A DNA stretch of 63,893 nt, filler included, from Folioceros fuciformis (lineage: Eukaryota), in assembly GCA_049999805.1 (NCBI GenBank). It is 6 parts of 6 records of this genome, joined end to end, with 100 filler letters (N's around TTAATTAATTAA, not from the genome) between each part and the next. Parts side by side here need not be neighbours in the genome. Positions count along the whole stretch, not along the records: positions 1 to 14,501 come from JBNGIO010003186.1; 5 more parts are not named here. One strand, written 5' to 3'. Positions within the stretch are counted from its first letter, which is position 1. Every line of letters begins with the position of its first letter. A model generated the notes under the pieces. It was not told the origin of the DNA, searched no databases, and was given only the letters and a program-made list of their open reading frames with translations. Of the stretch, positions 477-62,310 are shown one piece after another. Made by a program: the position numbers and the translations under genes.

Positions 477-3400
477 GGAGCTCACACCAAAAAAAACCTT
501 CCCTCATAATGACAAGCCTGGCCTCTTATACTCCCTTGGCCAGGAACGCCCTGTCACTACCTAACTAGGTCAGCACGCCTCAGACAGAACTCTCAACTCG
601 TCAAAACCCTAACCCTAACTTCGACCTACTCCTAACCCTAGCTCTAATCTAACCTAACTCTGACCTAACCTGACTTTGACCTAACCTTAATCCACCCTAA
701 TCCTAACCACGACCTAGAAGGGCTTATGCCCCTGGTTGCTCCTATAAAAAATAATCAACCTCTCAAAACTACCAAAAATCGTCAGTGCCTCTCGATACTC
801 TCTTCCTCTCTCTCCGATCCTCTCCTTTCCCTCACATCATGTGCAATTCTTCAGAGACCCCACCCTCTTCAGATCCTTCCCTCCATTCTGCTGGCCAAGG
901 CCCATGACCTGGCAGAGCTACCCATCTAGTGCCCTTGCGTGGGCACCTTGTGAGCTTGGCACTAGAAGCGACAACCCACCATCTCTACCAACATAACCAT
1001 CACTGGGCTTCCCACCTATTAGCAGCACACCTGTACTAGGCTTTCCGCCTACAAGCAGCCAAGCGTGCTGCTCGTGGATGGAAAGCCAAAGGGCACTTAT
1101 GTCATCTGGCTGACCACAGGACAAGAGAGATGCATTACTCCTGACTCCAATACTTGGATGGGGCAGTTCGCAGGTCCCTCAGCTTTGTCTGCATGCATTC
1201 TCCTGGCGGGCTGCGCCCCTTGACTCCGATACCTGGATGGGGCAGTTCGCAGGTCCCTCGGCTTTGTCTGCACTTATTCTCCTGGTGGGCTGCGCCCCCA
1301 ACGTTTGTCCAAGCCACCGTAGCCTCCCTGCTTGAAGCCTGACTCGAGCTGCTTCCCCTCCACCTTGTCCCTGAATCCCCAACTTCTAGCCCCGCCCCCT
1401 TGATCCAATCTCTAGGGGTCTGGTTGGCCCTTTCCACCTCAGCCAGCCGCCGTCTGCTCAATTCTAACCCAAACCCGGCCTTTGCAGCCTGGCTGCTTAT
1501 GCCGTGATTCAGCCAGCCCCTCGACCAGCCACAATCTTACCACCCGCCATCTGCTTGAGCCCCTCGTTCCTGCTTGGATTCCACCGGCACCCTGCTTGTG
1601 ATCCTGCCACCGACTAGCCATCAGCTAGGATATTGATTCAGCTTGCTCGGTGCCGACCCTCATCCTAGCTAGTCAGCCATCCTGCTAAACACAACCCAGG
1701 CCAGCCTACAACACAATCCAAGCTAGCCTACCATGGTTGCCTGGATCCTGCCACCCCGGCCCCGCTCAGCCCCAGCAATTCGGCCAGGCTTAGATTCTCC
1801 ACCAACCAGCTAGTCTACTAGACTGATCCTGGCACCCGCTTGCTCGGAGCGCCGGTCACCTGGAGGCTAGCGCTCCCCTCTGATCCCCTGGCCGACTGAA
1901 TCCGGCCCCAGCCGTCTGGAGCCCTTCCTCCCACGCAGTCAGCCTTCAGCGCCAGGCCGCCTGCACCGAGGCCACACACCGGCCTCCTGCCTTCCCGATA
2001 TAGCCAAGCAGCCAGCTTGCTTGGTTGCTTGGTTCCTGCAACCAGCCACTGCCCAGCTTCCCCAGCTGCCTTGCTGCCTAATCAATCCTGCCCACCACCC
2101 GGTCGCATGCCATCCACTGCCGCTGCTGGTTGCCTGTAGCCCGATCTACTGGGCGAGCTGCTGCTTGCCGGTCCCCATACTGACGGTTGGGCTACCTGCC
2201 AGCCAACCAGCCCCCCACCTCAACCGTCTATCCGTCGTTGCTTCCCTAGATCCAATATACCTGCGACCCGGATTCTGCCCGCCTCCTGGATCAGGCAGCA
2301 TTGCCTGGCTGCCTGCTCCTCAACCAATTGTTGCTAGGCCAGCCACCTACCAGGATTCCCCCCGGCCTGGACTTCCCCCAGCCGCCTGCCTGCCGATTCC
2401 AGATCCAGCAGCTACTGAGCCGCCTGCCGGCCTGAATTTCCTCCAGCCCACCGGCCTGCTCCCGGCGGCTGCCTGGCCAGATCTGCCTGCAGGTTCGCCT
2501 ATCAGCCAGCCGTGACCAGCTAGCTAGCCCAGGCGGATCGAATGCCGCCCGCCTGCCTCCAACCACAACTAGTCCGGGTGCCCAGCCAGGCTGCCTGCAC
2601 CCCGCCTGGTAGATGCATGGCCAGACCCGGCTTCAAGCAGGCACGCCCTATCTAATCCGCTCCTCCTGCTGGACCTAGCCCACAGCCTGCCTGGGTCCAC
2701 TCTAGCCTCATTCGCAACCAGCCGATGGCGGCGCTTACCTGCGGCCTAGATCATGCCGAGGCTCGCTTGGCCTGGATTTCCTCTTGGCCAGGTTCCCCCT
2801 GGCCAGCCAGCCCCTGTTGGCCAGCCACCTGCCAGGCCTGGCTGTTCCTCAGTTGTAGGCAACCCGCAAGCTTGGTTGCTCCTCAACAGCCGGCCGCTTG
2901 TGCTATTGGCAACCTACCTGCCCCTCAGCGGCCGAGCCACTGCTGCCCATCCACCCACCAGGCCGCCTGCCGGCAGGCTAGATCCTCAGCTGCTGCTACT
3001 GCTGCCAGTCGCATGCAGCCAGGCCGCTGCTGGCCCGGCCATCCTCCAAGCCCTTGCTGGCCTGCCTGCCCTCCTAGATCTGGCCAGGCAGCTAGCCCGC
3101 AGGCCTGCTTGCTGCCTGCTGGCTAGGCTCCTCAGCAGCCAACCGGCCCTTGGCCTCCTCCTGGCTCCAACCTGGCTCAGATCCAACATGGCTAACTTGC
3201 CAGCCCCATCCTTAGCCCGGGTCCGGCCCCGGTCTGGTACACCTACGGATCTAGCTCCGCCGCCTGGCCTGGATCCGGTGCTCCCCTGTCCGTGGTTGCC
3301 TGCTTGCCCCGCAACCGTTGGGTTGGCTGGCCAGGTAGCTAGCCACCATCTTGTCTCCTGTCCTGTAGCCGGGCCGAGCTAGCCTCCTGGCCAAGCCCTT

Positions 3401-4140
3401 CAGCAACCCTCTCCCTGTCGGCGGTTCTCCCGGTAGCTGCAGCCATCAGCGCCCAGCCCGGCCAACCACGCCCCGCCTGGCTAGCTCCTGGCTGGCTAGA
3501 TCCGACTGGCAAGCCAACCGTACCCGCCAACCAGCCCCTGTATGGCTCTGCCTCGACCAGCCGGCTGGCTCCACTAGCCAGACCGCAGAACCACTGCAGC
3601 TCAGCCACCTGCCCGACCAGCCTTGTCTGGCCCATCCTCGACCAACCGGCCGGTCTACTGGATGGCTGGATCTGGCCGCAAGGCAGCCAAACCCGATGGC
3701 CAGGCCCCTGCCATCCTGCCGTCAACGCAACCAACTGGTCGCACCGCCGGGCCGCTACTGGCCCGGCCACCCTCAAGGCCGCCTGCCATACCGACTTGCC
3801 CTTCCGGATCCGGCCAGGCAGGTGGTCCAGATAGCCAGCATGCTGGTTGCCTACTGCTTGGCCGCGGCCCAGCCAACCTACCCACGAGACCCAGCCGGCC
3901 CCAACCTGGCTCCGATGTTGGCTTGTCCAGCTGCCTACACTCAAGGTCCTCAGCCCCCGGCGCACCTGGGGCAGAGGCCAGGGCAAGTCTAGGCACCCCC
4001 ATGCCTATCCCCAACCCCCACCCGCACGCTCCCGAGGCCCCAACTCGCCCTCACACGCCCAACTTAGGGTTCCACACACGCCGGCACCCCTCCCCACGGG
4101 CACACCCCACCCGCTACTTCGCTCTCTCCACGGGTTAGCT
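477..4140 (+). mobile_element. C-rich, GC-rich dispersed repeat (probably non-coding part of a retrotransposon)
   Basis: 477-935 matches the reverse complement of ~42975-43375. 2127-2445 matches 60827-61150 directly. 3610-3790 matches the reverse complement of ~40665-40860. Its ORFs are low-complexity P/A/L/W and have no recognisable domain. Confidence 0.7.
1142..1299. repeat. Tandem duplication, 2 x ~79 bp
   Basis: tgactcc..tacytggatggggcagttcgcaggtccctc.gctttgtctgca...attctcctgg.gggctgcgcccc occurs twice, back to back. Confidence 0.85.
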
Positions 4141-6050: not shown

Positions 6051-6700
6051 TGCGGTGGCAAAACCCAGGCACCAGACTATTGAGGAGGGGCTTTTGTTGC
6101 CTCTAGTGTCCACACTTATCCCACTATCCTTGAGACGTTGGGTTTTGTTCCCATGAAGGAGCGATGGAGTTTCTCTCTTTCTATTTGTCGGATGGATGGA
6201 GGGTCTACCTTTCTTACTACCTCAACTCCTAAGCAAATACTATCTTGTCCTAGCCCATATGTCCCACCCAACCGGATAGACAGTTGGGTCAGCTTCTCAA
6301 CCAAGCCACAAACAATTCATAGACTGATGCTACGTCAAATTCTTCTCACGGCCAGTTCTCACATTAACAACCTCAGACAGTCTACCAGATCTCAAAATGC
6401 CTTCTAAAGACTATGTTCTATCAATTGGACAGATTGCCTAAACACTTGTACAACTCACACACCTTTGGTGTCGGATTTGAGGGCTCCCCTCCAAATCCGA
6501 TTAGCGTAGGACAAATTGTCTATCCAACACTCCTTAGTGCTTTTCCTTTAGCAACCAACAAGACTTCTACCCCTACTCATCCTAATGAGTCCTCCCTATT
6601 GGGCAAGAGTCTCTTAACTAGGCTACCACCGAGAGAGAAAAGAGGGAAACACACTCCCCTTATCGATACCTCTTCCTCACAACCTTACTAGACACCATGA
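6051..6700 (+). mobile_element. LTR-like repeat, copy 1 (same family as 14219-14501)
   Basis: Starts TG(C/T)GG(T/A)GGCAAAACCC and shares ccacacttatccca...ttgagac.ttgggtt..gttccca.gaaggagcgatgg and gagggctcccctc...gcgtaggacaa with 14219-14420. The 3' end is approximate. Confidence 0.6.
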
Positions 6701-7934
6701 AACATGGCTAGCACACAACACTTGTTCAACTAAGTGGACAAAATAAGAGACCAAGACATATCCTTCACAATCAAGAGTCATGGGCTTAGCCCTTTACCTT
6801 GGCCACTTCACCTCATGATCCCACTAACCATTGTGCAAACACACAACCGACACCATCACTTGTCCTGGACCAAGCATGGACATACCAAAAGGGCAAAGCA
6901 TGACAACATGAGTTCTAGGGACTTGCTATACTTTATAGGAGCCCCTCTCTCCTACGTCATCTCTCTTGTAGGATAATTTTTATTTTAATAAGTCAACTAG
7001 GCTAGTAGACTATCACCAGCCACTAATTTAGACTTTTATAGTATCTATCCTGCCATTAGAATTAACAAGCCAACCATACCACCTGCTAACCCTACCACCA
7101 CAAGTATCTTCAACCTATAAAAATATTCTAAACATTGAATGCTGACTAATCTCTTTAGATCCTATGGGCACCGCCTTTTAGAGATTGCTTCCTTGACCTC
7201 CTTATTTTACTAACCCGCTATTATGATGACCTATCCCCTAGACAATTAGATCTATCATCCGAACCGTCACTTCCATTTCACTTACAACCACTTTCTGCGC
7301 TTCCTACAACAACTGTCTCACATCCATCCCGTTTGAAAGTCCTTCAACAGCCCAATCAATTCCAAAAATTAGTCTATTGACCTCCAGTCAGTAGGTATGT
7401 TAATCCATATGTAGATGCCAAAAAGCCATGAACATGAGAAATTCTTCTAGATTAAATTTTTGGAGTAATTCTTCGATGGTCCAAATATAGTTTCAAACCA
7501 AAGTAGTCCTTCGAACCAAGTCTGTTATGCTACCAAACTGGTCTGCCACTCCTGATAAGACCAAAAGTTTGGACCAGAAGCCGAGTTGCCCTACGGACTG
7601 TGACGCAAATATTTAGTCCAACCAAACTTCCGAATGTATTAACTGGACTTCCGTGGAAAGAGAGTATGCACCATCATCTCCATCTTCTAGGTTTTTCTCA
7701 AGGCATGTCGTGACACCGATCATGTACGAGCTTCACAAAGGAGTATGGAGAAAGGAACTCCGACCTAAGAGGGGGAAGGGGGAAGGTCTACCGTACATGT
7801 ACCGCATTGTGAGGCTTCTGGAAGGAGGGAGTCGTGTGGCAAGGCGGTGGAACGAGCCTCCAATGCTTGTGAAAGAGTGCAACTCTAGCCCACTAAACTA
7901 GGCATAAGGTTTTAGTGACGTTTCATGAAAGACA

Positions 7935-8870
7935 TGTTAATAATAAGGGGTTATTTTAGTATAACCTACCTTAGGGTTAATTAACCATAGTTATGAAAAG
8001 ACACTTTGTATATAATACCTTTTTTTTTGTTGAGTTTAATTAATTGTCATTTTATGCAACTTGTGCACTAGCATCTTTTCTTCTAGCATGGTATCAGAGC
8101 CCATGCATTTTTATCTAGTAGTCCTATGGCTAATTGTAGAAGAAGATTGTCTCTACTTCTATTGTCTAGCATAGAGTGCTACTTAGAGTGTTAAAATGCA
8201 TTTATGCTAGTGAATTTTGTGCAGGATGACGAGGAGAAGGGGAAGCTATTGTTCTTCTAGCTTCAGGCCTTCACAAGGCCAAAGATTGCAGAGAGAGCAG
8301 CAATCCCCACTACAGTCACCTACATTCTACTCTACAAACCCACAATTTCACTGTGCTAGGGGTAGTAGGTGCCCACCTCCTTGCTTGCATCCTGCACAAC
8401 ACAATTCCTACAGAATTGCTGTTGAGAGGGTCAATTCAGGTGCTCGAGATATTCAGAGGCATCTTCTCCAACAAATGAACAACAGGCTGGTTTGGCTTGA
8501 TCAAGTACCTGAAAGAATTGAGGCTTTGGAGGATCGTTTGGGATTTTTGCTGTTAATTTTGCAAGATGTTTCTGCAATAGTTAATAGATTGTATGAATTT
8601 CAAATTGCACCTGCACAGTCTACTTCTAATCAGTCCAATTTTGCTAATTTTCAAGCAAATTTGGGTCATCAATCTAGTTGATACCTTCATATAGCAAAAG
8701 CCACAGCCTGATTTGAAAGGTTGTGATGAAAGGGTGCCTGCAAAAAGCACCAGCAACTGCCAAAGTTAGTTCCTTTTGATTGGTTGGCAGTTAGGGTTTT
8801 GGCCTTTAATACAATCTTTGGCTTATCTCTTTATACAATCTCTTATCGCTATATACAATCTTGGCGAAGA
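7935..8870 (+). mobile_element. LTR element A, 5' part (LTR ~7935-8088, PBS 8089-8100, extra ORF), truncated
   Basis: A TGTTA...TAGCA-bounded AT-rich segment is followed immediately by TGGTATCAGAGC (PBS for initiator tRNA-Met). No gag was recognised downstream. Confidence 0.7.
8226..8681 (+). CDS. Accessory ORF of LTR element A (basic N-terminus, C-terminal coiled coil)
   Basis: Open frame MTRRRGSY...LQQMNNRLVWLDQVPERIEALEDRLGFLLLILQDVSAIVNRLY starts 126 bp after the PBS. Confidence 0.5.
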   Translation: MTRRRGSYCSSSFRPSQGQRLQREQQSPLQSPTFYSTNPQFHCARGSRCPPPCLHPAQHNSYRIAVERVNSGARDIQRHLLQQMNNRLVWLDQVPERIEALEDRLGFLLLILQDVSAIVNRLYEFQIAPAQSTSNQSNFANFQANLGHQSS

Positions 8871-9409
8871 ACACCCCATCACTCTCCACCATGGTCAACA
8901 TTAGTTCACAGGCTTAAAAATATTTCACACACCCGCCAAGAACCTAAACCCTAACTCCAGCCTATGGGAAACTGCTAGCTGGCCTTTTCAGACTCATTAC
9001 TAGTTCCCCCCTAAACTGGTCTACAGCCACTTCCTTGCAATTACTCCACCTTCCCCATCTCCCCCCTCAAGTCATCCTAGCCTTCTTCAAAGCCTCAAGC
9101 CCCCATCCTCCTGGCCAAACTGGCCAAGGAGATTCGCCATGCAGCTGTCATGATGATTGAACTGCTGCACTCAACACATTAGCTTCATGTCCTTGCTCTC
9201 TAATTTGTGCGTGAAGCTACTTCCCCTTCCTTAATGTTGCAGCTCGCACACTTGTAGTACTTGGCTTCCATATCCTTGCTCCGTAATCTGTGGGGAGATG
9301 CAACAAGCCTCCTTTGAGTTCACATCCCCACTCCAGCAGCTCCACAAATGTAACGCCTTTACCACACAGCCTCACGTTCGCGTCCACGTTCTTTTGCAGC
9401 AAACGTAGG

Positions 9410-10300
9410 AGGTCATGCAAGTCTTGGGCATGGCAGACATAGCCCTGAGCAGCTTGTAGAGCTGCCCCAAGGGAGGCTGAATTTGGGCGTTGAGCTGGAA
9501 ATATAAGGCTGCCAAACACTTGAGCCATGAGCTTGAGGAGATGCTGATTAGTCGATCTACCACCGGTTGCAATCACACACTTAGGCAAGCTGGGCATCCC
9601 GATCCTCTCGCGTGTGCTTGCATGGACAAAAACTAGCCTTCTTCTAGCACCCTCACCTCGGCTGGAGCATCGAATGGCATACCTACCGCGTGAGCCACCC
9701 CATGCACAAACCAATGAGTCTTGGCAGGAAGCGGAGGCAGAATTTCCGACTCGGTATGGAAGAAGCCGACCTGGCCGTTGTTCAATGCTGGGTTCCGGTC
9801 TAGTAGTTGATTGAACTCCTCCCCCCACCTCCTGATCTTGCACCAGCTCCCAAGTCAGAGACCCATTCCTGTAGCACAACATGGCCATGTAACAAGACAG
9901 ATCCACCGGGTTGGGAAACAGGTCCTTCCATGCTTGGGTCATGGTATTGTGTGATGCCAAACACGGTGTTGCTCGTTCCCAAGCTCACGACTAGATCCCC
10001 TGGCCTATTCAATGCCAAGCCGGCCAAGGAGCAGGGGCTGTCCCTGCTCCAGTGCACCACTTGGCAATCCTCCCAGAAACCATAGCTTCGCATGGAGTAG
10101 GAGCTCAATGGTCTCGCTACCGCATGCGGATGAGCAGGATACCCGAGTTTGTCTCTCAGCCCCAGTGCGGTGCGTGCAACGCCTCCTCATACCACTCCTG
10201 CTCTGTCCTCCAGCACATGCTCTCAACTCTACACCCCACATCACTTGCACCTGCCGCAACCTTGAATCCATTGCGTGCTCCAGGAACTTGGCCAGCACCA
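9410..10300 (-). pseudogene. Xylulose kinase (FGGY family, XK-2 type) pseudogene fragment
   Basis: Frameshifted pieces match plant xylulokinase: VVHWSRDSPCSLAGLALNRPGDLVVSLGTSNTVFGIT; FPNPVDLSCYMAMLCYRNGSLT; VIATGGRSTNQHLLKLMAQVFG...RPNSASLGAALQAAQG. Confidence 0.85.
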
Positions 10301-10302
10301 CA

Positions 10303-10661
10303 TGATGAAATATAATAGGTATAGGGCACTAGTCACTAGGGCACCTTTACTTAAACATTATTAAATGTCTAGGGCAACAAGTAGTTTCCTTAGGTAGTTA
10401 GTAGTTAGTAGTTATAACAACTTATTGTTATAACAACGTATTGTTATAACAACGTATTGTTATAACAACTTATTGTTATAACAACTTATTGTTATAACAA
10501 CGTATTATTATAACAACTTATTGTTATAACAACGTATTGTTATAACAACTTATTGTTATAACCGCCTTCTAGGCTTCTATATAAACACTTTAGACTTCTT
10601 ATTATGTAATGCAACTCTACAAGACTCTTTTGCAAAGTACATTTGTGCGTGATTCTCATCA
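10303..10661 (+). repeat. 5' LTR of Copia B
   Basis: 6-bp terminal inverted repeat TGATGA/TCATCA, TATA-like CTATATAAA ~10577, and the PBS directly adjacent. Confidence 0.85.
10411..10562. repeat. 16-bp tandem array with palindromic core TTGTTATAACAA (~9.5 copies) inside the LTR
   Basis: Unit ttgttataacaac(g/t)ta is read directly. Confidence 0.95.
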
Positions 10662-10842
10662 TGGTATCAGAGCATCCTGCTCTAGATGTTTGAGCACCTT
10701 GCTTGCCTCTCCTATAAGCATGAATTCTTTTGTGCATTACTAATTTTGCAGCATGGAATTTTGGCTTGGAGGAGACTTTACAATTATGCTCATCGTATTT
10801 TTATGATGCACAAATTGTGCATCATCTTCTTAACTCCTTCTC

Positions 10843-11385
10843 ATGGGGCAAGGAAGTAGGAGGAGATTGAAGGCTGCATCAAGGGAGAATGCAATCAATT
10901 TCAATAATTCCGACAAATTTATAGATCTAATTGAAAGAGATTCTAAATTTATTGGCAATTTTATTGGTGCTATCCTTATAAAATCAGAGAATCAAGGAGA
11001 GTTGATTGAGGTGGCTAAGAGAGATTTACTTACTTGTTTTAGCTTATCACAAGTAGAATCTCTTGTTCTAGCACTCCAACTCATTCCTAATCTACGTGCT
11101 GGTCCTGTTGTGATAAGTAGCACAGATTCTTTGCAGCCCCTCCTTCAATCTATCAAAATAAATTCAGAACTTAGACATAATGTCATTAGTGGACAGTTGT
11201 CGTCTTTGGCGCGTGCCATCAATCATTTAGCTGAATGCATTGAAGACTTAAATACTAAAATGTCTAAAAGTTCCTTGCGGAAATTCACATTTTTACCTGC
11301 AGATTTTGTTTTTGATATGATTGGAGCATCCTTTGGTGAAATCTCCTCCAAGACAGCACGCACACGACATACTCGTGGCCTTTAA
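10843..11385 (+). CDS. Extra 180-aa ORF between PBS and gag of Copia B
   Basis: Intact frame MGQGSRRRLK...GQLSSLARAINHLAECIEDLNTKM. It is in the same frame as gag (ATG 11398) and separated from it by one TAA. Confidence 0.55.
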   Translation: MGQGSRRRLKAASRENAINFNNSDKFIDLIERDSKFIGNFIGAILIKSENQGELIEVAKRDLLTCFSLSQVESLVLALQLIPNLRAGPVVISSTDSLQPLLQSIKINSELRHNVISGQLSSLARAINHLAECIEDLNTKMSKSSLRKFTFLPADFVFDMIGASFGEISSKTARTRHTRGL

Positions 11386-11397
11386 ACATTACCTGCC

Positions 11398-14218
11398 ATG
11401 GGTAGTCGGGAAGATGAGGGAGAGCAACTTGATGAAGAAGTCAATATCAACAAGGATCCTATTGAGACCATATCAATGGTTGTCAATAATTATGGAGACA
11501 GCTTCAAAGAAAAGGACAGATTCAATGGCAAGGACTACAACGTATGGCGCCTGTGAATGAGGGGAGTATTGCGTAACTGTGACCCATGGGATATCGTTAG
11601 CGGACCCTTAGAGCGCCCAATTTGGGGTGCTGACAAAAAACGCACTTGGGATGCAAAGGATGAGAGAGCCCAGGATATGATTATCGGTGGTCTCTCTCTC
11701 CATATGGTACGACAAATCAACGAGGTAGGATCCTCCAAAGATATGTGGGACCACCTCGCACAATTATACTCCTCCAAGGATGTTATGAGTTTGATGATTG
11801 CTACTCGTCATTTCCATAACCTCAAGATGAAGGAATATGATATCATCGAACACCATATTAGTGCATTCCGAATGGCAAGATCCCAACTTGAAGTTGCTTC
11901 CAGCTCCAAGCTCTCCGAATTAACATGCTTTGTCGCATTATTATCCTCTCTTCCATCCTCCTATAGATCATTTGTGACAACTCAAAATGCTGTTTTAAGA
12001 ACAGCACAAAAAAATATGGATATGCACGAAACTTTAGACATAAGTGTAAATGAGTTGATTGGAGCACTGATACAAGAGGAATCAAGTCGATGCCTCGACT
12101 CATGAGCTCGCCGACAGCAGGTGATGTTCACAGGAAGGGGCATAGGAAGAGGTCGCGTTCAAAATCGTACTAGAGGACCTCCTTCCACAAGACCTACCAC
12201 TTCCTCTCAAGGCTTCTCTAAAGGAGCTTCTCCGTCTTCTTCCACAACTATAAGAGGTAATAAAAAGATAGGAATTATTTGCAATTGGTGCAGAATCCCA
12301 AATCACATGGAGAAGGATTGCAGAAAGAAGAAAAACGATGAGCCTAGGAAAGAGGCCCCACTTGGCGTACATGTTGCTGTGAAGAAACCATCTTCCTCAA
12401 CCCCTTCTGCACTTACAGTAAGTATGTTTGGCATCTTCCCAGCCTACTAATCAATACTGGTACCTTGACAGCGGAGCTACCTCACACATCTGTTATGACA
12501 AAGACTCCTTTGAGTCCTACTCCCCAACCACTGGACACTAGTCTGTCCTCTTGGGTGATGATCACAACCTCCCAATAATTGGAGCATGTTTATATGTTTC
12601 ACAGGTTAGACTCTACACTTACGTCATGTCCTTCATGTACCAGCCATGTGTAAAAATATAGTCTCTGCCTCTAGTTTATGTTATCAACACAGTATGCAAG
12701 TCATACTTTACGCAGATAGTTGTCTTATTTCATATACCTCCAATAAGTCACATATCATCTGCATAGGCACACTAAAAGAAGGGTTATACAAACTTTCAGT
12801 TAAAGTGGGTCCTACACATTCTATCAATGTAGCATCCTCTAATTCTGCATCACTTAACCACACAATATTGTAGCACTGTCGTCTTGGTCATCCAAACAGC
12901 CAAAAATTAGTACAAAAGTCTAAGGCAAGAAACTTATATCGTACATCCTGCCTCTCTCAAATTCAACACCTATCATGGTGTGAGACTTGTGTCATTACTA
13001 AGAGACATCAAGCTCCCTTTAAGAATTCCTCTCCACAGAGGGCAAAATGTCCTCTAGAGATTGTTCGTACAGACATTTGTGGCCCTATGATAGCTCTACA
13101 CCTTCATTTAGTGGTAGCAGATATTTTATGGCCTTCGTCGACGACTACTCTAGGTTTACTCTCACCTACATTTTAAGTCATAAAGGACATGTTTATCGTT
13201 ATTTCCAAGACTATATGGCATGGGCAGAGAGATCGACGGAGAAGAAACTCAAAACCTTACGTTCCGACAATGGTGGCGAGTTTACCTGCAAACAATTTGA
13301 GGATTTTTGTCGCCTTCGCGGTATTGCTCAACAACTCACTGTTGTTTATACTCTTGAACAAAATGGTGTAGCAGAGAATAAGAATCTACACCTTCAAGAG
13401 ATTATTGGTTGCTTGTTAAATCAAGCAAAGTTACCCAAAGTGTATTGGGCCGAGGCACTCCTCACAGCCACATATCTCATGAATCAACTGCCCACTTCAA
13501 CAGTCCAAGGTATGACACCTTATGAAACTTTTATAGACAAAAAGCCTTCTATAGAACATCTCTTTATTTTTTGATCTCCGGCATATGTTTTTGTCCCAAA
13601 AGCATTAAGAAGAAAGTTTGATCCAAAGGCAGTAAGATATACCTTTATTGGCTATTCAAAAGGAATCAAGGGTTATAAATTGTTTGATCCTTCCACTAAG
13701 AGGCTTCTTTATGCTCGCAGTGTTACCTTTCATGAAAATTCCATGTTTTCACCTTTAGTGGGAGATGTTCTACCTACTCACTCTTCATCTGAAGATATAG
13801 AATCTGAATGTTCTTCTTTTGATACAAGTGACTATATTGTGGATTTTCCTAATCCTACCCTTCAACTTCTCTTTGATAGACCTATCATGCAAGAGGAGGA
13901 TTTGGGCCCTGTATTGCGTCCCGATTCACCTACATAAGATATTGAGGAACCTCAACACCTTGAGGATATCCCTTATGATCAGGATGAACCTCAGGATGTT
14001 TCTTTTGATACAGGCGAACCTAATGGTGACTCTGAGTAGGACTCAACGGACTCAATGCCTTGTGAAGATGTAGAAAATGAGCAACCTACACACTTACGAA
14101 AAGAAAAGACTTACGTACTTGGCGTCAATATTATTAGAGACAGAAGCCATAAAAGTTTAAGCGTTATTCAAACAAAATATATAAAGGAAAGCTTAATCAA
14201 GTTTGGACTAGGAGATGC
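11398..14218 (+). pseudogene. Copia gag-pol polyprotein pseudogene
   Basis: Gag, protease and integrase motifs carry in-frame stops (e.g. TGA 11554, 12103) and frameshifts. Most of RT/RNaseH is missing. Confidence 0.9.
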
Positions 14219-14501
14219 TGTGGAGGCAAAACCCCAGGCACTGATTGCCGACGGGTTCCACCTTTAGTGGCCACACTTATCCCATTGTCGTTGAGACATT
14301 GGGTTCCGTTCCCACGAAGGAGCGATGGGGTTCCTTGCTGCTGTGGAAGGAGGGTCGGACTCAATCGACTCAGTGATGGATTCGAGGGCTCCCCTCGAGC
14401 TCCAATCAGGCGTAGGACAAGCCTCATTGTCCAGCGGTCAGCTGCACCTCTATGGGTGCCCACAAACTCACTCCAGTCACTACAACGACCCTAACCTCTC
14501 A
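14219..14501 (+). mobile_element. LTR-like repeat, copy 2, nested in the RT of Copia B
   Basis: RT homology stops abruptly at TGTGGAGGCAAAACCCC, and the following sequence is homologous to 6051 onward. Confidence 0.65.
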
Positions 14502-14601
14502 NNNNNNNNNNNNNNNNNNNNNNNNNNNNNNNNNNNNNNNNNNNNTTAATTAATTAANNNNNNNNNNNNNNNNNNNNNNNNNNNNNNNNNNNNNNNNNNN
14601 N
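14502..14601. other. Artificial contig spacer
   Basis: N44 + TTAATTAATTAA (stops in all six frames) + N44. Confidence 0.98.
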
Positions 14602-49400: not shown

Positions 49401-52008
49401 CAAACGCAATTTTTCTAAACAGTCCAAACGCAAACGATTGGCTTCCTCTTCCACTGATTGGAGAGTACACATGAGCTCAGCATTCTTCAGTGTGAGGCCC
49501 TCAACCGCGCCTGTCCGTTGTTCGAGTTGGCTATTTAATTGCTCAAGTGCCTGTGCTTTCTCCGTTGTCAAGCGCGATATTTCTCCAAGAAGCGTCTCCT
49601 GCATTAACCCCTCCACGCCACGAATCCTGAGTCAAAAGCAAGAAGGGTGATAATTGACTCCGGACCACAAAGCTTACAAACCTTATCAGCTTCGCCAGAG
49701 AATGTCTTAAGAGCATACTACAGTACCTTCTCCTCACATAGATCCTGCACAGTTGAGGCCAGTTCCACTTCCTTATTTCTTTGTTTATGCATGATTTCTT
49801 CAAGCCCCTCTTTTTCAGTCCTGAGTTTCACGTTCGTCTCATGAATGACCTTTATTTCAGAGGCTGAAGCAGCTTCAGTATCTTCTGCCCTTCTGACAAC
49901 ATCATCAAGACTCCTCTGCAGCCCGGCGTTTCGGGTCTCAGCAACTGGAAGAGTCAAGAGAAATATATTAGCGGAAGAGGACACACAGCTTACTCTTGAT
50001 AAGCAGCGGAATTCTAACTTGCCTTCCAGCTGGTGATGCACCGAGGTCACAACCCCATCAATCTTCTGATAACGAATTTCTAGAGCCTGGAGGTCCTGAA
50101 GAGCATTTTCCTTTGCCTGCCACTCGACCTGAGCCCGTTCTTCAATCTCCTTAATTTGCTCACGAAGGTTATCAGCAGTAGATGAAGCTTCGTCTAGGGC
50201 CCTTTCCATCTCGCTGACCTTGTGGGCCAGCTGCAATCTCTCCTGCTTCCCTGCATCGATTATTTGCGCCATACCAGATAGCTGCCCCTCCAAGTCCCTA
50301 TTGTAAAAATCACTCTCTGTTTTCTTCTGTACCTGTGGAAATTCCACGAGCGTTAAGTCTGCACATAATGGAAGGACACTCAGACAGCCTCAGATTCTCA
50401 TTGTCAAAGGAACAGAGTCAGAAGTTTGACTACGCGCTTCCAACTTTTGCGGATGCAATCAGTGTGGTCAATGTGGGACTCATCAGAGAATTATACCAGG
50501 AGCTGCAGATCATTCTCCAACTTGGCTAGTTCTTCAATCTTTTCACTCAGTTGCATTTGTGTGAGCCTGTGCTGGTCTCTAGAGGATATTAAGAAGTGTT
50601 TCTCGTTTTGAAGGGACTGCTCAGCAACATCCAGCTGCCTTTGCATTTGTTCTGTGAGGTAAAGGCAAACACCAGGTACAACAAAAAATCATTTACTACA
50701 CCAATAACTTAGAACAACTGCAAACAGAAAGCCTGCCAGAGCTACAAATCCCGCCTGATGAGACCTTCATCCACCTCAAATGTGATCTCAATGAGGCTGT
50801 GAGCGTATGTGGCAACAATTGGTTCAGAATGAACCGAAGTGTGCATATTACACCTAGTCTTAACACTACCAAAGATAGCCTATTGATGGCACAAAATGCC
50901 TCCAGATACCTTTTTCTTCAGTCAATTTTTCTGACGTTGAGATTGAACGAATAAGGTTATCTTGCATCTCAGCTGCTTCTTGAGCCATCCTTTGAATATC
51001 TTCTTCTCCTGCAATATTAGCACCTGCCTCTGAATCAGAACTGCCCCAAGTACATGCATGCGATTGACACGAGATTTCCCTACTTTGTACAGTGGTGTTA
51101 GTAGCTTCAGTCAGTTTATGGTGCAACATCTCTGTATGAGCTTTGCTCTGCTCATAGAAAGCAAGTCGACTCATTAGGCTCTTTTCAAGAAGAGCTTTGT
51201 CTTGCTCCCCTGCATCAGGCAAACAGAATTATCCCCACAATGAGAGATGCCCTGTCATCATGTCTGAAACACGATAACCGCCTCCAATAATTATATTAAG
51301 ATAACGGACCCTGGCTCAGTTGAATTTCCAGCTGTTGAACAGTTTCTGTGATCTGATCAAACATTGCGCTCATGCCAACATGCTTTGTCTCAAGGACCTT
51401 CCACAGTTTCATATCCTCCATATGCTTGGCCTTCAACACCGACTTCTCATTGGCTTCCTGCTGTAGCTTGAACTCTAGAGCTTGGACTTTTTCCTCGTAC
51501 TTTAGAACCTTACTTCTCTGAAATTACAGACAAGGTGATATACCACCGTAGCCATCATGTAGGCCCAACTTCAGGCGAGCAAAAACGCAGTGTAAATCGC
51601 ATTTCAGCTCTCTGTGCAGCCTTCCCGGTCTCCTGCTACTTTCAACTTCTACTCCTTGCAAACATCCATGCTACTTACCAGCCGTTGCACATCCGCCTTA
51701 GTACATGCTTGCTCCTGCATCATTTTCTCTGCAAACATATATGTATTAGACCACACATCTAGTATGGTTGCATGCAACGGAGTTAAAGGATAGTGCTCAC
51801 ACAAGTCGGAGTGAAACAAACCTGCGGTCAGCTGCAATTGTTGGAAATTCTCCTCCGTGCGAAAATTACTCGGTTTCGCTTGCGTCTCCCCATGAGCTCG
51901 AGGTGACTTGAGGCTGCTTCCAAGTACCGACTTCGTGTGGAAACGGGACTGCTCGCAAATTCTGATTGCGGTACTATTCTGAAGCGCCGACTTCAGAGGA
52001 AAGGCCAT
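46459..52008 (-). CDS. ZYP1: Synaptonemal complex transverse-filament protein ZYP1-like, many exons; start approximate
   Basis: N-terminal FQQLQLTA/EKMMQEQACTKAD and LEFKLQQEANEKSVLKAKHMEDMKLWKVLETK...DQITETVQQL resemble plant ZYP1; long coiled coil; C-terminal SLFGGCGLDPYE resembles ZYP1 DLFSEGSLNPYA. Confidence 0.85.
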
Positions 52009-59607: not shown

Positions 59608-60826
59608 GGTTTAGGGTATGACCCATCCATAGTACCCCATACACCACGTGCCAGCAGAGTGGCTTTCATTCTTACACGCCAGGTGGAATAACCGTCCCCC
59701 TTGAACCTATCCTTTTCACGTAATTCTGAGGTAAAAGTTGGGAAGGCAGTTGTAGCCATGAGGGTTGAGGGGTTTCGTGAGGGAAGGGAAATATCCCGGA
59801 GTTACACCCTGCTCACGCCAAACTCCCCTACTTTCCTTTCAGGCAATTAAGGCAGTTACGTCATAAGACTTATTAAACACACTAAAGATAAGAAACGTCG
59901 TAACGCACACCTCTTCATCCAAAGAAAATTGAGCCGGCTGATACTAACCGCTCATGTCCCTTGGATATGCAGACCTGAACCAATGAGGTAGCGCGCCAGG
60001 TTGTTCGGTGAAGAGGCGTGAAGGAGAAGACGTCGTTTCAAATCGAGAGTCGGCTTGCGCCGGATTGCTCCTGCGCCTCGGCCGCGCCACTCCGGTAGTG
60101 TAATCGCCTCAAGATTGCGGTGGGAGTGATGCCAATCTCTCGCGTTGGAGTTGCTCCGTATTGTCGAGATGATTGACAATTTGCGCTTGAAGCATGAGGA
60201 TGCGCGACAGGATTACCTCCACCCGATCCAGTGATGCTTGCAATTTTTTCGAGATGCACCTGAACTCCGATCTGCGAATTATCTTCGCTCCTTCCCGCTG
60301 ACCAGAAAATTTGGATGTTGAACCAGGTTGGTGCGGGACGGAAGTCGGTAAAACAGCGTCAATTGGTGATCGGTCGTAAGTTGATATCGGTCCCCCTCCA
60401 TAAGCGCATCCGCGGCGAAAACAGTTAGCTATCGTCGTCGTGATGGGAAAATGGTTGCGATATTGGGGCCGATGCCCAAATTGAGCACGGCTGTATGAGG
60501 TGAGCACCGCATCTAGCAACGGGGGAACTCCACATCTCAGCGCGTGTTTTTCTTGGTAGCCATACCGTAGAGACTCCGCTTGGTGAGCTCTCCTATGGTA
60601 GGCTCCCCGTCGCGGCATTGCTCATGTACAGGATCCAGAGCAAAGCTTTGATACCATCTCACAAAGTTGGCTTGTGCGGAAGCTAGTTGAGGAACTATTA
60701 TAATATATGAATTAATTAAATACAAACAATAGTTTGTTCAAATACAAATGGTGGTGACGTTTCGCTAGTAACTATTTAACCAAAAATGACTAAACCAGGT
60801 AGTTAATGTTTATCCTTATTTTAACA
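59608..60826 (-). mobile_element. Ty1/Copia element C, 5' part (LTR 60657-60826, PBS 60645-60656, extra ORF, gag start)
   Basis: On the minus strand: TGTTAAAATAAGG... LTR, PBS TGGTATCAAAGC, gag N-terminus LREKDRFKGDGYSTWRVRMKATLLARGVWG (ATG 59759). It is inserted into the C-rich repeat, which resumes at 60827. Confidence 0.85.
60109..60618 (-). CDS. Extra 169-aa ORF between PBS and gag of Copia C
   Basis: MPRRGAY...ISKKLQASLDRVEVILSRILMLQAQIVNHLDNTEQLQRE starts 26 bp after the PBS, in a different frame from gag. Confidence 0.55.
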   Translation of the reverse strand: MPRRGAYHRRAHQAESLRYGYQEKHALRCGVPPLLDAVLTSYSRAQFGHRPQYRNHFPITTTIANCFRRGCAYGGGPISTYDRSPIDAVLPTSVPHQPGSTSKFSGQREGAKIIRRSEFRCISKKLQASLDRVEVILSRILMLQAQIVNHLDNTEQLQRERLASLPPQS

Positions 60827-62310
60827 TGGTTGCCTGCAGCCCGATCTGCTGGGCGGGGTGCTGCCTGCCGGTCCCCATACTGACGATCGGGCTGCTTGCC
60901 AACCAACCAGCCCGCCGCCTTAGCCGCTTATCCACCGTTGCTTCCCTGGATTCGGTATACGTGCGACCCGGATTCTACCCGCCTCCTGGATCAAACAGCC
61001 TTGCCTGGCTGCCTGCTCCTCAACCAGCTGCTGCTGGGCCAACCACCTGCCAGGATTCCCCCTGGCCTGGACTTCCCCCAGCCAGCTGCCTACCGATTCC
61101 AGATCCAGCAGCTACTGATCCGCCTGCCGGCCTGAATTTCCTCTAGCCCCCTCTGCAAACGGCCCGGTGGCCGTGCCTACCTGCAGCCCAGTTGCTTTGG
61201 CCATGATCCAGCCAGCCGCCGATTGGCCATGGTGTAGCTAGTCGACCTGGCTGCTGGATCCATCATCCCCCCAGCCTTGCCTGCAGCCCGCTTGGATGGC
61301 CCCAAATCCCGCTGAGCCACCCGCAAGCCGCTAGGCGGGTACCTGCTCTGGCGACACCCCCTGCTCGTCGCCTTGACGGCCAAGGTCTCCTCCAGCCAGC
61401 TGGCCTGCACCATGCGGCTGCCCGGTCGAATCCACTTGCAGGATCGCCTGCCGGCCGCTTGCCAGCCAGCTTGCCGCCAACCAGCCAGGCCGATACCAGG
61501 TTGCCTGCTGGTTGCATGCCTGCAGTCACGACCAGTCCGGCCACCCGCAGCCGCATCCAGCCGGCCAGCCGCACTGGTCGCACAGCCGGGCCGCCGGTGG
61601 CCCAGCCACCCTCCAGACCGCATGCCAGGCCGGCTTGTCCTCCTGGATCTGGCCAGGCAACTAGCCAGCAGATCCGCCTGCAGGCTGCTACAACCGCCGC
61701 CTGGCTAGCTCCGGGCTGGCTAGATCCGGCTAGCAAGGAGGACGTGCCCGCCAGCCAGCCCCTACCTGGCTCTGTCCCGGCTAGTGGATCGCAGGACCGC
61801 TGCGACTCGGCCCCCTACTCAGCCGCCGTGGCCTGTCTGGGTTCAATTCTCTTGCACCAGCCTGGATGCGCGACCTCCTGCTTGCTTTGGTCCAGCCACC
61901 TGCCATAAGCCTGCTACCCCTCCGGATCCGGCCAAGCCGCAAGCGCCGCCGGAGGCCTGTCACGTGATCCACCCCAGAGGCCTGTCACGTGATCCACCCC
62001 GGAGGCCTGTCACCTGATCCACCCCGGAGGCCTGTCACGTGATCCACCTCGGAGGCCTGTCACGTGATCCACCCCGGAGGCCTGTCACCTGATCCCGCTG
62101 GCTAGCCGTCTCAGCCATTGCTGCCAGCCGCCAAGCGACAGCCTGGCTGCCTGGTGATCCGGCATCTGCCAAGCCACTGCAAGCCGGCCCACCTGCCTGC
62201 AGCCCACCTGGCCTCAGCGCCAACCGCCGACTACATAGCTCCAAGATCAATCAGCCACTGCCCGCTCCACTGCCGCTACCAAACCGCCTAGATCCTCCGA
62301 CGCCAGAGGC
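60827..62310 (+). mobile_element. Third copy of the C-rich dispersed repeat
   Basis: 60827-61150 is near-identical to 2127-2445; further blocks match ~3050-3090, 3470-3570 and 3730-3790. Confidence 0.75.
61949..62096. repeat. 25-bp minisatellite, ~6 copies (ccggaggcctgtcacgtgatccacc)
   Basis: Read directly; 4 copies contain TCACGTGA. Confidence 0.95.

Follow-up and report, generated by a model that had tools for sequence, protein, structure and literature searches.

Candidate 5' accessory open reading frames ahead of gag in three incomplete Ty1/copia elements of Folioceros fuciformis

A stretch of Folioceros fuciformis DNA of 63,893 bases, referred to here as the window, carries the remains of three different long terminal repeat (LTR) retrotransposons, elements A, B and C, in each of which a primer binding site (PBS) of the tRNA-Met type is followed by an open reading frame (ORF) that is not gag. 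The tentative reading is that these frames are true 5' accessory ORFs, each peculiar to its own family of Ty1/copia elements, and that they belong to the class termed 5' additional ORF (5' aORF) or eORF-5'F in plant LTR retrotransposons; all three elements are incomplete. Their length, their consistent placement and a common design, consisting of a basic start and a heptad helix in the C-terminal half, argue that they are not accidents of three unrelated leaders. Such a layout ahead of gag is rarely described for Copia; the feature itself is of a known kind, the 5' additional ORF, here in Copia.

ORFs between the primer binding site and gag

An earlier note on this DNA, made from the sequence alone, proposed that each PBS is followed by an open, non-gag frame of 150-180 codons. 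This description holds, the frames comprising 151, 180 and 169 codons on the sense strand of A, B and C, respectively (Table 1). They have the arrangement that defines a 5' aORF or eORF-5'F, namely a same-strand ORF outside gag-pol that lies between the 5' LTR and gag, and in element B a single TAA codon provides the separation from gag. At these lengths they stay below the 250-codon working threshold of Neumann et al. (2019). When each leader from PBS to gag was shuffled 5000 times with dinucleotide composition preserved and the longest ATG-initiated ORF compared, an ORF of the observed length arose in 0/5000 shuffles for A, 0/5000 for B and 43/5000 for C.

The three PBSs named in the earlier note are all present, but the third differs by one mismatch from the exact 12-mer TGGTATCAGAGC. 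Matches to this 12-mer number 3 in the window against 0.29 expected, and at least three occurred in 0/100 shuffles. Nine Jatropha Copia families are reported to use the same 12-mer as their tRNA-Met PBS (PMC3852365). By 12-mer identity, the window itself holding no tRNA gene for comparison, the elements possess the tRNA-Met PBS adjoining the 5' LTR that is expected of Ty1/copia, and a short AT-rich LTR candidate beginning with TG directly precedes each of the three sites. Rfam and tRNA scans of the window returned no matches.

ORF-B additionally displays gene-like codon structure. Its frequency of RNY (purine-any base-pyrimidine) codons is 0.31 in frame versus 0.20 and 0.22 out of frame, and G occupies the first codon position at 0.27 versus 0.17 and 0.15, a periodicity pattern that is also that of gag and integrase in the same element. 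The third codon position has the lowest GC content in both ORF-A (0.48/0.45/0.34 over the three positions) and ORF-B (0.44/0.39/0.29).

Design of the predicted proteins

The basic N-termini reported earlier are borne out in all three ORFs by an excess of Lys and Arg over Asp and Glu within the first 30 residues (6:1, 6:3 and 7:2 for A, B and C). In ORF-A the N-terminal part is Arg-rich, and there is no lysine among its 151 residues. The peptides quoted in the earlier note describe the ORFs accurately, but the labels of two were exchanged: MPRRGAY and LQASLDRVEV... belong to ORF-C, while MGQGSRRR and LSSLARAINHL... belong to ORF-B.

The heptad-like helix placed in the C-terminal half by the same note is recovered as a four-heptad pattern in A, B and C. 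It was scored over the best 28-residue proline-free window as the fraction of Leu, Ile, Val or Met at positions a and d minus the hydrophobic fraction elsewhere. The best windows start at residues 96 (A), 115 (B) and 120 (C), all in the C-terminal half, and composition shuffles attained the observed scores in 3/1000, 0/1000 and 3/1000 cases; residues 115-142 of ORF-B form a perfect a/d pattern over four heptads. Among all 34 ATG-initiated ORFs of 130-230 amino acids in the window, which served as a control, a score reached by at most 3 of 300 shuffles occurs solely in the three post-PBS ORFs (0, 0 and 1), and the gag and integrase ORFs of element B give 239/300 and 46/300. Next after the three ranks 49721-50272 on the minus strand (5/300). 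Since this ORF comes next, the metric appears to pick sequence resembling true coiled coils, and the three ORFs score equally well or better.

The open frame to which this runner-up belongs, 49718-50389 (minus strand), has a strong heptad pattern, is rich in Glu, Leu and Gln, and acts as an unplanned positive control for the score. It probably represents an exon from a host gene for a coiled-coil protein.

A heptad a/d pattern extending over at least four heptads of a helix, the mark of a coiled coil, is thereby found; the helix is modelled for ORF-A, and oligomerisation is predicted from architecture. AlphaFold modelling, which the earlier note had suggested, produced a confident long helix for ORF-A but no comparable result for ORF-B. 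The single-sequence AlphaFold2 model of ORF-A assigns a predicted local distance difference test (pLDDT) score below 50 to residues 1-55, followed by a long helix at residues 56-127, and 43 residues reach a pLDDT of at least 90. A prediction of self-association between two copies of ORF-A residues 70-151 scored 0.02. A candidate I(V)N[H/R]L motif is present in all three helices.

In Pfam, the ORFs match neither gag nor any other family (best E 0.03), and NCBIfam gives nothing below E 0.05. Pfam and the protein searches likewise contain no sign that they belong with Tekay ORF0, Ogre ORF1 or the SIRE env-like ORF, as neither a homologue nor a plant mobile domain (PMD), Transposase_28 or Athila ORF-1 domain was found. 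Nothing in PDB matches ORF-A up to E 10. In Protein Atlas, ORF-B has no usable match and the best match of ORF-A, to a CCDC184-type cluster, scores 0.79, below lead level. An RNase H-like identity was also considered for ORF-B and rejected, with no support in Pfam or PDB and a model that is unusable at pLDDT 40.

Structure and state of the elements

The window consists of six contigs chained by N44-TTAATTAATTAA-N44 spacers. Features spanning the joins at 14502, 40413, 44754, 59508 and 62378 are consequently not contiguous in the organism. Six sequencing runs were listed, of which two contain the stretch, with no RNA run listed as containing it. Sibling copies were sought in Logan contigs of sequencing runs, compared with window positions 7600-14500; the summed contig depth reported over this interval is not a copy number.

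Table 1. Features of the three elements and contig joins (positions in the window)
Feature	Position	Strand	Remarks
5' LTR of A	7935..8088	+	154 bp; TGTTAATAATAAGG...AGCA; TG...CA ends immediately before PBS
PBS of A, tRNA-Met type	8089-8100	+	exact TGGTATCAGAGC
ORF-A	8226-8681	+	151 aa; first long ORF after PBS of A
Remaining leader of A	8682..8810	+	family similarity ends ~8810
5' LTR of B	about 10306..10661	+	TGAAATATAATAGG...; 5' end uncertain
PBS of B, tRNA-Met type	10662-10673	+	exact TGGTATCAGAGC
ORF-B	10843-11385	+	180 aa; first long ORF after PBS of B
gag of B	11398..12105	+	Retrotran_gag_2 E 6.2e-29; in-frame TGA 11554-11556
Degenerate pol of B	12106..14218	+	pre-integrase, integrase core and SH3-like domains in several frames; reverse transcriptase largely missing
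5' LTR of C	60826..60657	-	170 bp; starts TGTTAAAATAAGG...
PBS of C, tRNA-Met type	60656-60645	-	TGGTATCAAAGC, one mismatch to TGGTATCAGAGC
ORF-C	60618-60109	-	169 aa; first long ORF after PBS of C
Start of gag of C	59759..59608	-	MATTAF...KDRFKGDGYSTW; cut by contig join 59607
N runs / contig joins	14502-14601, 40413-40512, 44754-44853, 59508-59607, 62378-62477

The LTR of element A begins at 7935, one base before the 7936 given earlier, and its boundary coincides with a rise in summed contig depth from 11.7 (7600-7830) to 265.5 (7831-8061) in run X1. For element B, the LTR is supported by loose contig ends at 10347 and by raised contig depth. Its interior contains, at 10379-10594, ten head-to-tail 16-bp tandem repeats with the unit GTTATAACAAC[G/T]TATT. 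The LTR boundary of element C is sharp because a different repeat, 88% identical to 2127-2200, forms the flank at 60827-60900. This flank belongs to a GC-rich (60-67%) repeat family at 1800-4000 and 60827-61900, with long Pro/Ala/Gly-rich frames on both strands, and element C is inserted within one copy of it. No second (3') LTR of A, B or C lies in the window, which therefore lacks the paired LTRs and target site duplication of a full Ty1/copia element. Contig joins interrupt elements B and C, and A breaks off at ~8810; they are therefore incomplete copies, a state compatible with membership of Ty1/copia.

Element B provides the fullest record. Directly after gag come gag_pre-integrs (E 9.2e-05), rve (E 3e-10) and SH3_retrovirus (E 3.2e-19) domains; the reverse transcriptase (RT) is mostly missing, RVT_2 having no match in the piece 14040-14264, and pol is absent from A and C in the window. 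By its domains, element B is a decayed Copia element. The earlier note's claim that a Copia gag follows the ORF in B and C is secure for B through Retrotran_gag_2, but in C the 50 residues left of gag match DUF4219 (E 4.6e-06) and Retrotran_gag_3 (1.7e-04) just below the Pfam cut-offs. Copia-type gag, as recognized by Retrotran_gag_2/3 and DUF4219, is thus found in both, and in A it is represented by a 31-nt motif match in a sibling contig.

Some of the frame breaks in the window copy of B look private, and relative to it sibling contigs are 4 bases shorter at 12417 and 5 bases shorter at 13089. Contig depth is raised over ORF-B. Among the best-supported differences between contigs and window, beyond which lie 1449 further differences and 73 further indels, ORF-B has at least one substitution, 11139 C>T, which is synonymous (Pro99), and ORF-A has at least one, 8422 T>C (Val66Ala). 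Element B ends at ~14219 in a hyper-abundant repeat that runs up to the contig join at 14502. In this repeat (14219-14501) the summed contig depth is 80,000-160,000, against ~11 for unique sequence; a copy 84-85% identical lies at 6100-6514 (6100-6174 and 6473-6514), many different flanks occur in the runs, and Rfam has no match.

No gag accompanies element A in the window. The interval 8059-8810 is spanned, with 12 substitutions and 0 gaps over 752 nt, by Logan contigs whose depth is 4.4-4.6 times that of the neighbourhood. This unbroken cover counts in favour of a genuine ORF-A, and more than one near-identical copy of the A family probably exists. In a sibling contig, position 8810 is joined to 31 nt that match window position 11502, at the KDRF motif encoded by the gag of B. 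Because sibling contigs run on into this motif, the A family appears to have gag after its ORF.

Three observations concern the same region and its sequencing runs. The interval separating A from B contains, at 9220-9942 on the minus strand, part of a gene for an FGGY carbohydrate kinase (FGGY_C, E 9.4e-07). One 6048-nt contig, from a run that is presumed to be RNA (X4), aligns to 9423-10203 at ~89%, with a replaced stretch of 76 nt; the same run has nothing over the ORF bins, a result that says nothing about expression. In run X3, C>T (219) and G>A (421) account for most differences over 7600-14500; this may be a bisulfite-like library and, if so, able to show the methylation state of the elements.

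Alternative explanations

The main rival to genuine accessory ORFs is that the frames are neutral relics or young proto-ORFs, that is, leaders that happen, or happened, to be open in dead copies and encode no selected protein. This is rather unlikely in our estimate, and several results weigh on its side and against an accessory function. The ORFs are orphans in every protein search: an exhaustive phmmer search of 1.84 billion representatives gave 0 matches for ORF-A, proteins of near length include no relative of ORF-B or ORF-C, longer proteins include none of ORF-B read through into gag (with X at stops), and metagenome and viral contigs hold none of the ORFs. BLASTP and Smith-Waterman comparisons place all ORF pairs at shuffle level. 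Neither RNY nor first-position G periodicity is present in ORF-A and ORF-C, and language-model recognition is low (1402 for ORF-A and 1584 for ORF-B, below the 2300 reached by 91/100 known families). Between PBS and ORF start there are 4, 6 and 1 ATGs in A, B and C, all three elements are truncated or degenerate, and the ORF-B model is, as noted, unusable. To these may be added an apparent gap in ORF-B: three DNA runs each include a contig (depth 9-14) from which 292 nt, 11011-11302, are missing, with only 28 letters on the shorter side. The length is not a multiple of 3, and one sibling may thus be broken. The skipped segment ends GT..AG and a strong acceptor-like tract, tttttacctgcag, stands ahead of 11303; the skip may be a copy of spliced RNA or a simple deletion. 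Chance openness, however, would have to account for a long ORF in 3/3 leaders at the shuffle frequencies given above, for a heptad helix (at most 3/300) in all three but in 0/31 other ORFs of like size, and for the gene-like periodicity of ORF-B.

The frame could instead be the N-terminal part of Gag, the stop in B being a mutation of this copy or being read through. ORF-B may be such an extension because it is in frame with gag, with only the TAA (11383-11385) and four codons in between, and the second in-frame TGA, within gag, indicates that this copy carries nonsense mutations; both points count against a separate accessory protein. On the other hand, the gag ATG at 11398 has the strong context GCCATGG, and from it 42 residues remain ahead of the KDRF motif, a number within the usual range for Copia Gag. 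The TAA is also followed by A, a poor context for read-through. In C, 350 nt with stops in every frame separate the ORF from gag, and the two are not in the same frame; in A, the ORF is followed by no fewer than 129 nt, again with stops in every frame. A Gag extension is considered improbable. A similarly low probability is given to a long upstream ORF (uORF) that regulates gag translation or RNA fate, where translation would matter and the peptide would not. Each frame is the first long ORF on the RNA, that of B stops 12 nt ahead of the gag start, and the sequences differ wholly between families, all as a uORF would have it. A recurrent heptad helix with a basic N-terminus is nevertheless unexpected in an irrelevant peptide, and gag would need reinitiation after 150-180 codons, which is inefficient.

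Very improbable is the capture of host gene fragments into the leader by transduction, followed by decay. Evidence for it comes from PDB, where the last 56 residues of ORF-B (11215-11382) match the N-termini of two uS19 (eukaryotic S15) ribosomal proteins and nothing else (E 0.051 and 1.6), both alignments ending at ...RGL, and where residues 71-158 of ORF-C align with E. coli inorganic pyrophosphatase (E 0.27); the leader of ORF-C, at 52% GC, also contrasts with its AT-rich LTR. The 56-residue cut was made post hoc, however, and the whole of ORF-B reaches just E 1.7, while 7/8 ORF-C matches are variants of one E. coli protein whose Pfam family is absent even at E 10. ORF-A has no PDB match at that level. 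The E-values are those expected by chance for about six such searches, and both likenesses were rejected as chance.

Within the favoured reading of genuine accessory ORFs, a stronger version would make the three diverged forms of one old Copia accessory gene, encoding an oligomeric RNA-binding protein made before Gag, so that the elements would represent an undescribed three-gene Copia lineage with a functional parallel in LINE-1 ORF1p. We consider this distinctly unlikely. The traits cited for common ancestry are a start rich in Arg, a heptad helix with I(V)N[H/R]L at its end and the LTR start TG-W-W-AA...ATA-AGG. The earlier note's single lineage with one fast-evolving protein does not emerge from the comparisons, in which pairwise ORF similarity is at shuffle level and A and C are the only pair to share an N-terminal peptide and weakly similar LTRs. 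ORF-A and ORF-C give a local z of -0.09, and their C-terminal halves align as well in 172/2000 shuffles. Their start peptides, MTRRRGSY and MPRRGAY (M-T/P-R-R-(R)-G-S/A-Y), are encoded with different Arg codons and scored 76/20000 in an anchored test chosen post hoc. The LTRs of A and C align collinearly with weak similarity, 47/2000 shuffles being as good in a test also chosen post hoc; as the LTRs of A and B give 75/2000, AT-richness contributes to this similarity.

If the ORFs are translated as genuine accessory genes, the C-terminal helix might cause the protein to self-associate and the Arg-rich disordered part might bind nucleic acid, as the architecture suggests. The product could then act on the RNA or particle of its own element, in packaging, chaperoning or nuclear traffic. 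The earlier note had suggested a nuclear, oligomerising protein with a possible anti-silencing or targeting role. Translation of Gag would presumably depend on reinitiation (in B, 12 nt separate the ORF stop from the GCCATGG start), on splicing or on internal entry.

Comparison with known systems

The structure of Copia elements is considered uniform, consisting of one gag-pol unit. If the accessory reading is right, a small basic coiled-coil protein ahead of gag in three Copia families would constitute a third gene for the superfamily, and its interest would grow with evidence of purifying selection among sibling copies or of homology between the three ORFs. In common bean, 63/65 Copia families have only retrotransposase-encoding ORFs (PMC4093653). 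Vicient and Casacuberta (2020; PMC7264820) require that an additional ORF be present in all or most copies of a family. The REXdb survey of Neumann et al. (2019; PMC6317226) counts 582 Copia elements with extra ORFs in 45 similarity groups, includes eORF-5'F among its categories and describes eORFs as highly heterogeneous orphans; in the survey text, the SIRE 3' ORF (eORF-3'F) is the sole Copia extra ORF named as characteristic. Because that survey took ORFs of at least 250 codons (PMC6317226), frames of 151-180 codons lie outside its scope, and surveys with this threshold would miss the size class even if the present ORFs are neutral. No described Copia ORF between PBS and gag was found in the literature, where the figures and supplements of PMC6317226 may list such cases.

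In LINE-1, ORF1p is the first ORF and has a basic disordered N-terminus, then a coiled coil through which this RNA-binding chaperone oligomerises. The likeness is one of architecture, the oligomerisation and RNA binding of the present ORFs being predictions. Unlike ORF1p, they have no RRM or C-terminal domain and no sequence relation to it, and they reside in another class of element.

Closer in placement is Ogre ORF1, of the Tat clade of Ty3/gypsy, likewise an extra sense ORF upstream of gag (PMC2533021; PMC6317226). It is much longer, at 1527 bp in Medicago Mtr70, and belongs to giant Gypsy elements; a plant mobile domain, reported in 57% of Ogre elements, is absent from the present ORFs in Pfam.

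The closest parallel is offered by the 5' aORFs of Tekay elements (Retrosat2 ORF0, RIRE3/8 and sunflower Tekay group 2). These too are sense ORFs between the 5' LTR/PBS and gag that encode orphan proteins with basic stretches, resembling a nuclear localization signal (NLS) in Tekay, together with helix and disorder. No sequence similarity to the present ORFs was found. In contrast, the Tekay hosts are Ty3/gypsy chromoviruses and the proteins have ~400 residues as opposed to 151-180. In sunflower, the described 5' aORFs have an NLS, alpha-helices and long disorder and are conserved in 500/523 elements (PMC11728184). Conservation is documented over hundreds of Tekay copies, whereas for the present ORFs it is presumptive. 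In Retrosat2, ORF0 diverges rapidly against a conserved gag-pol (PMC3485330), and Tekay 5' aORFs that are conserved within a family differ from host to host (PMC11728184; PMC3485330). Should the ORFs described here prove genuine, they would form a counterpart to the 5' aORFs of Tekay and Ogre, themselves unexplained, and provide a short, tractable protein through which the function of such accessory genes could be approached.

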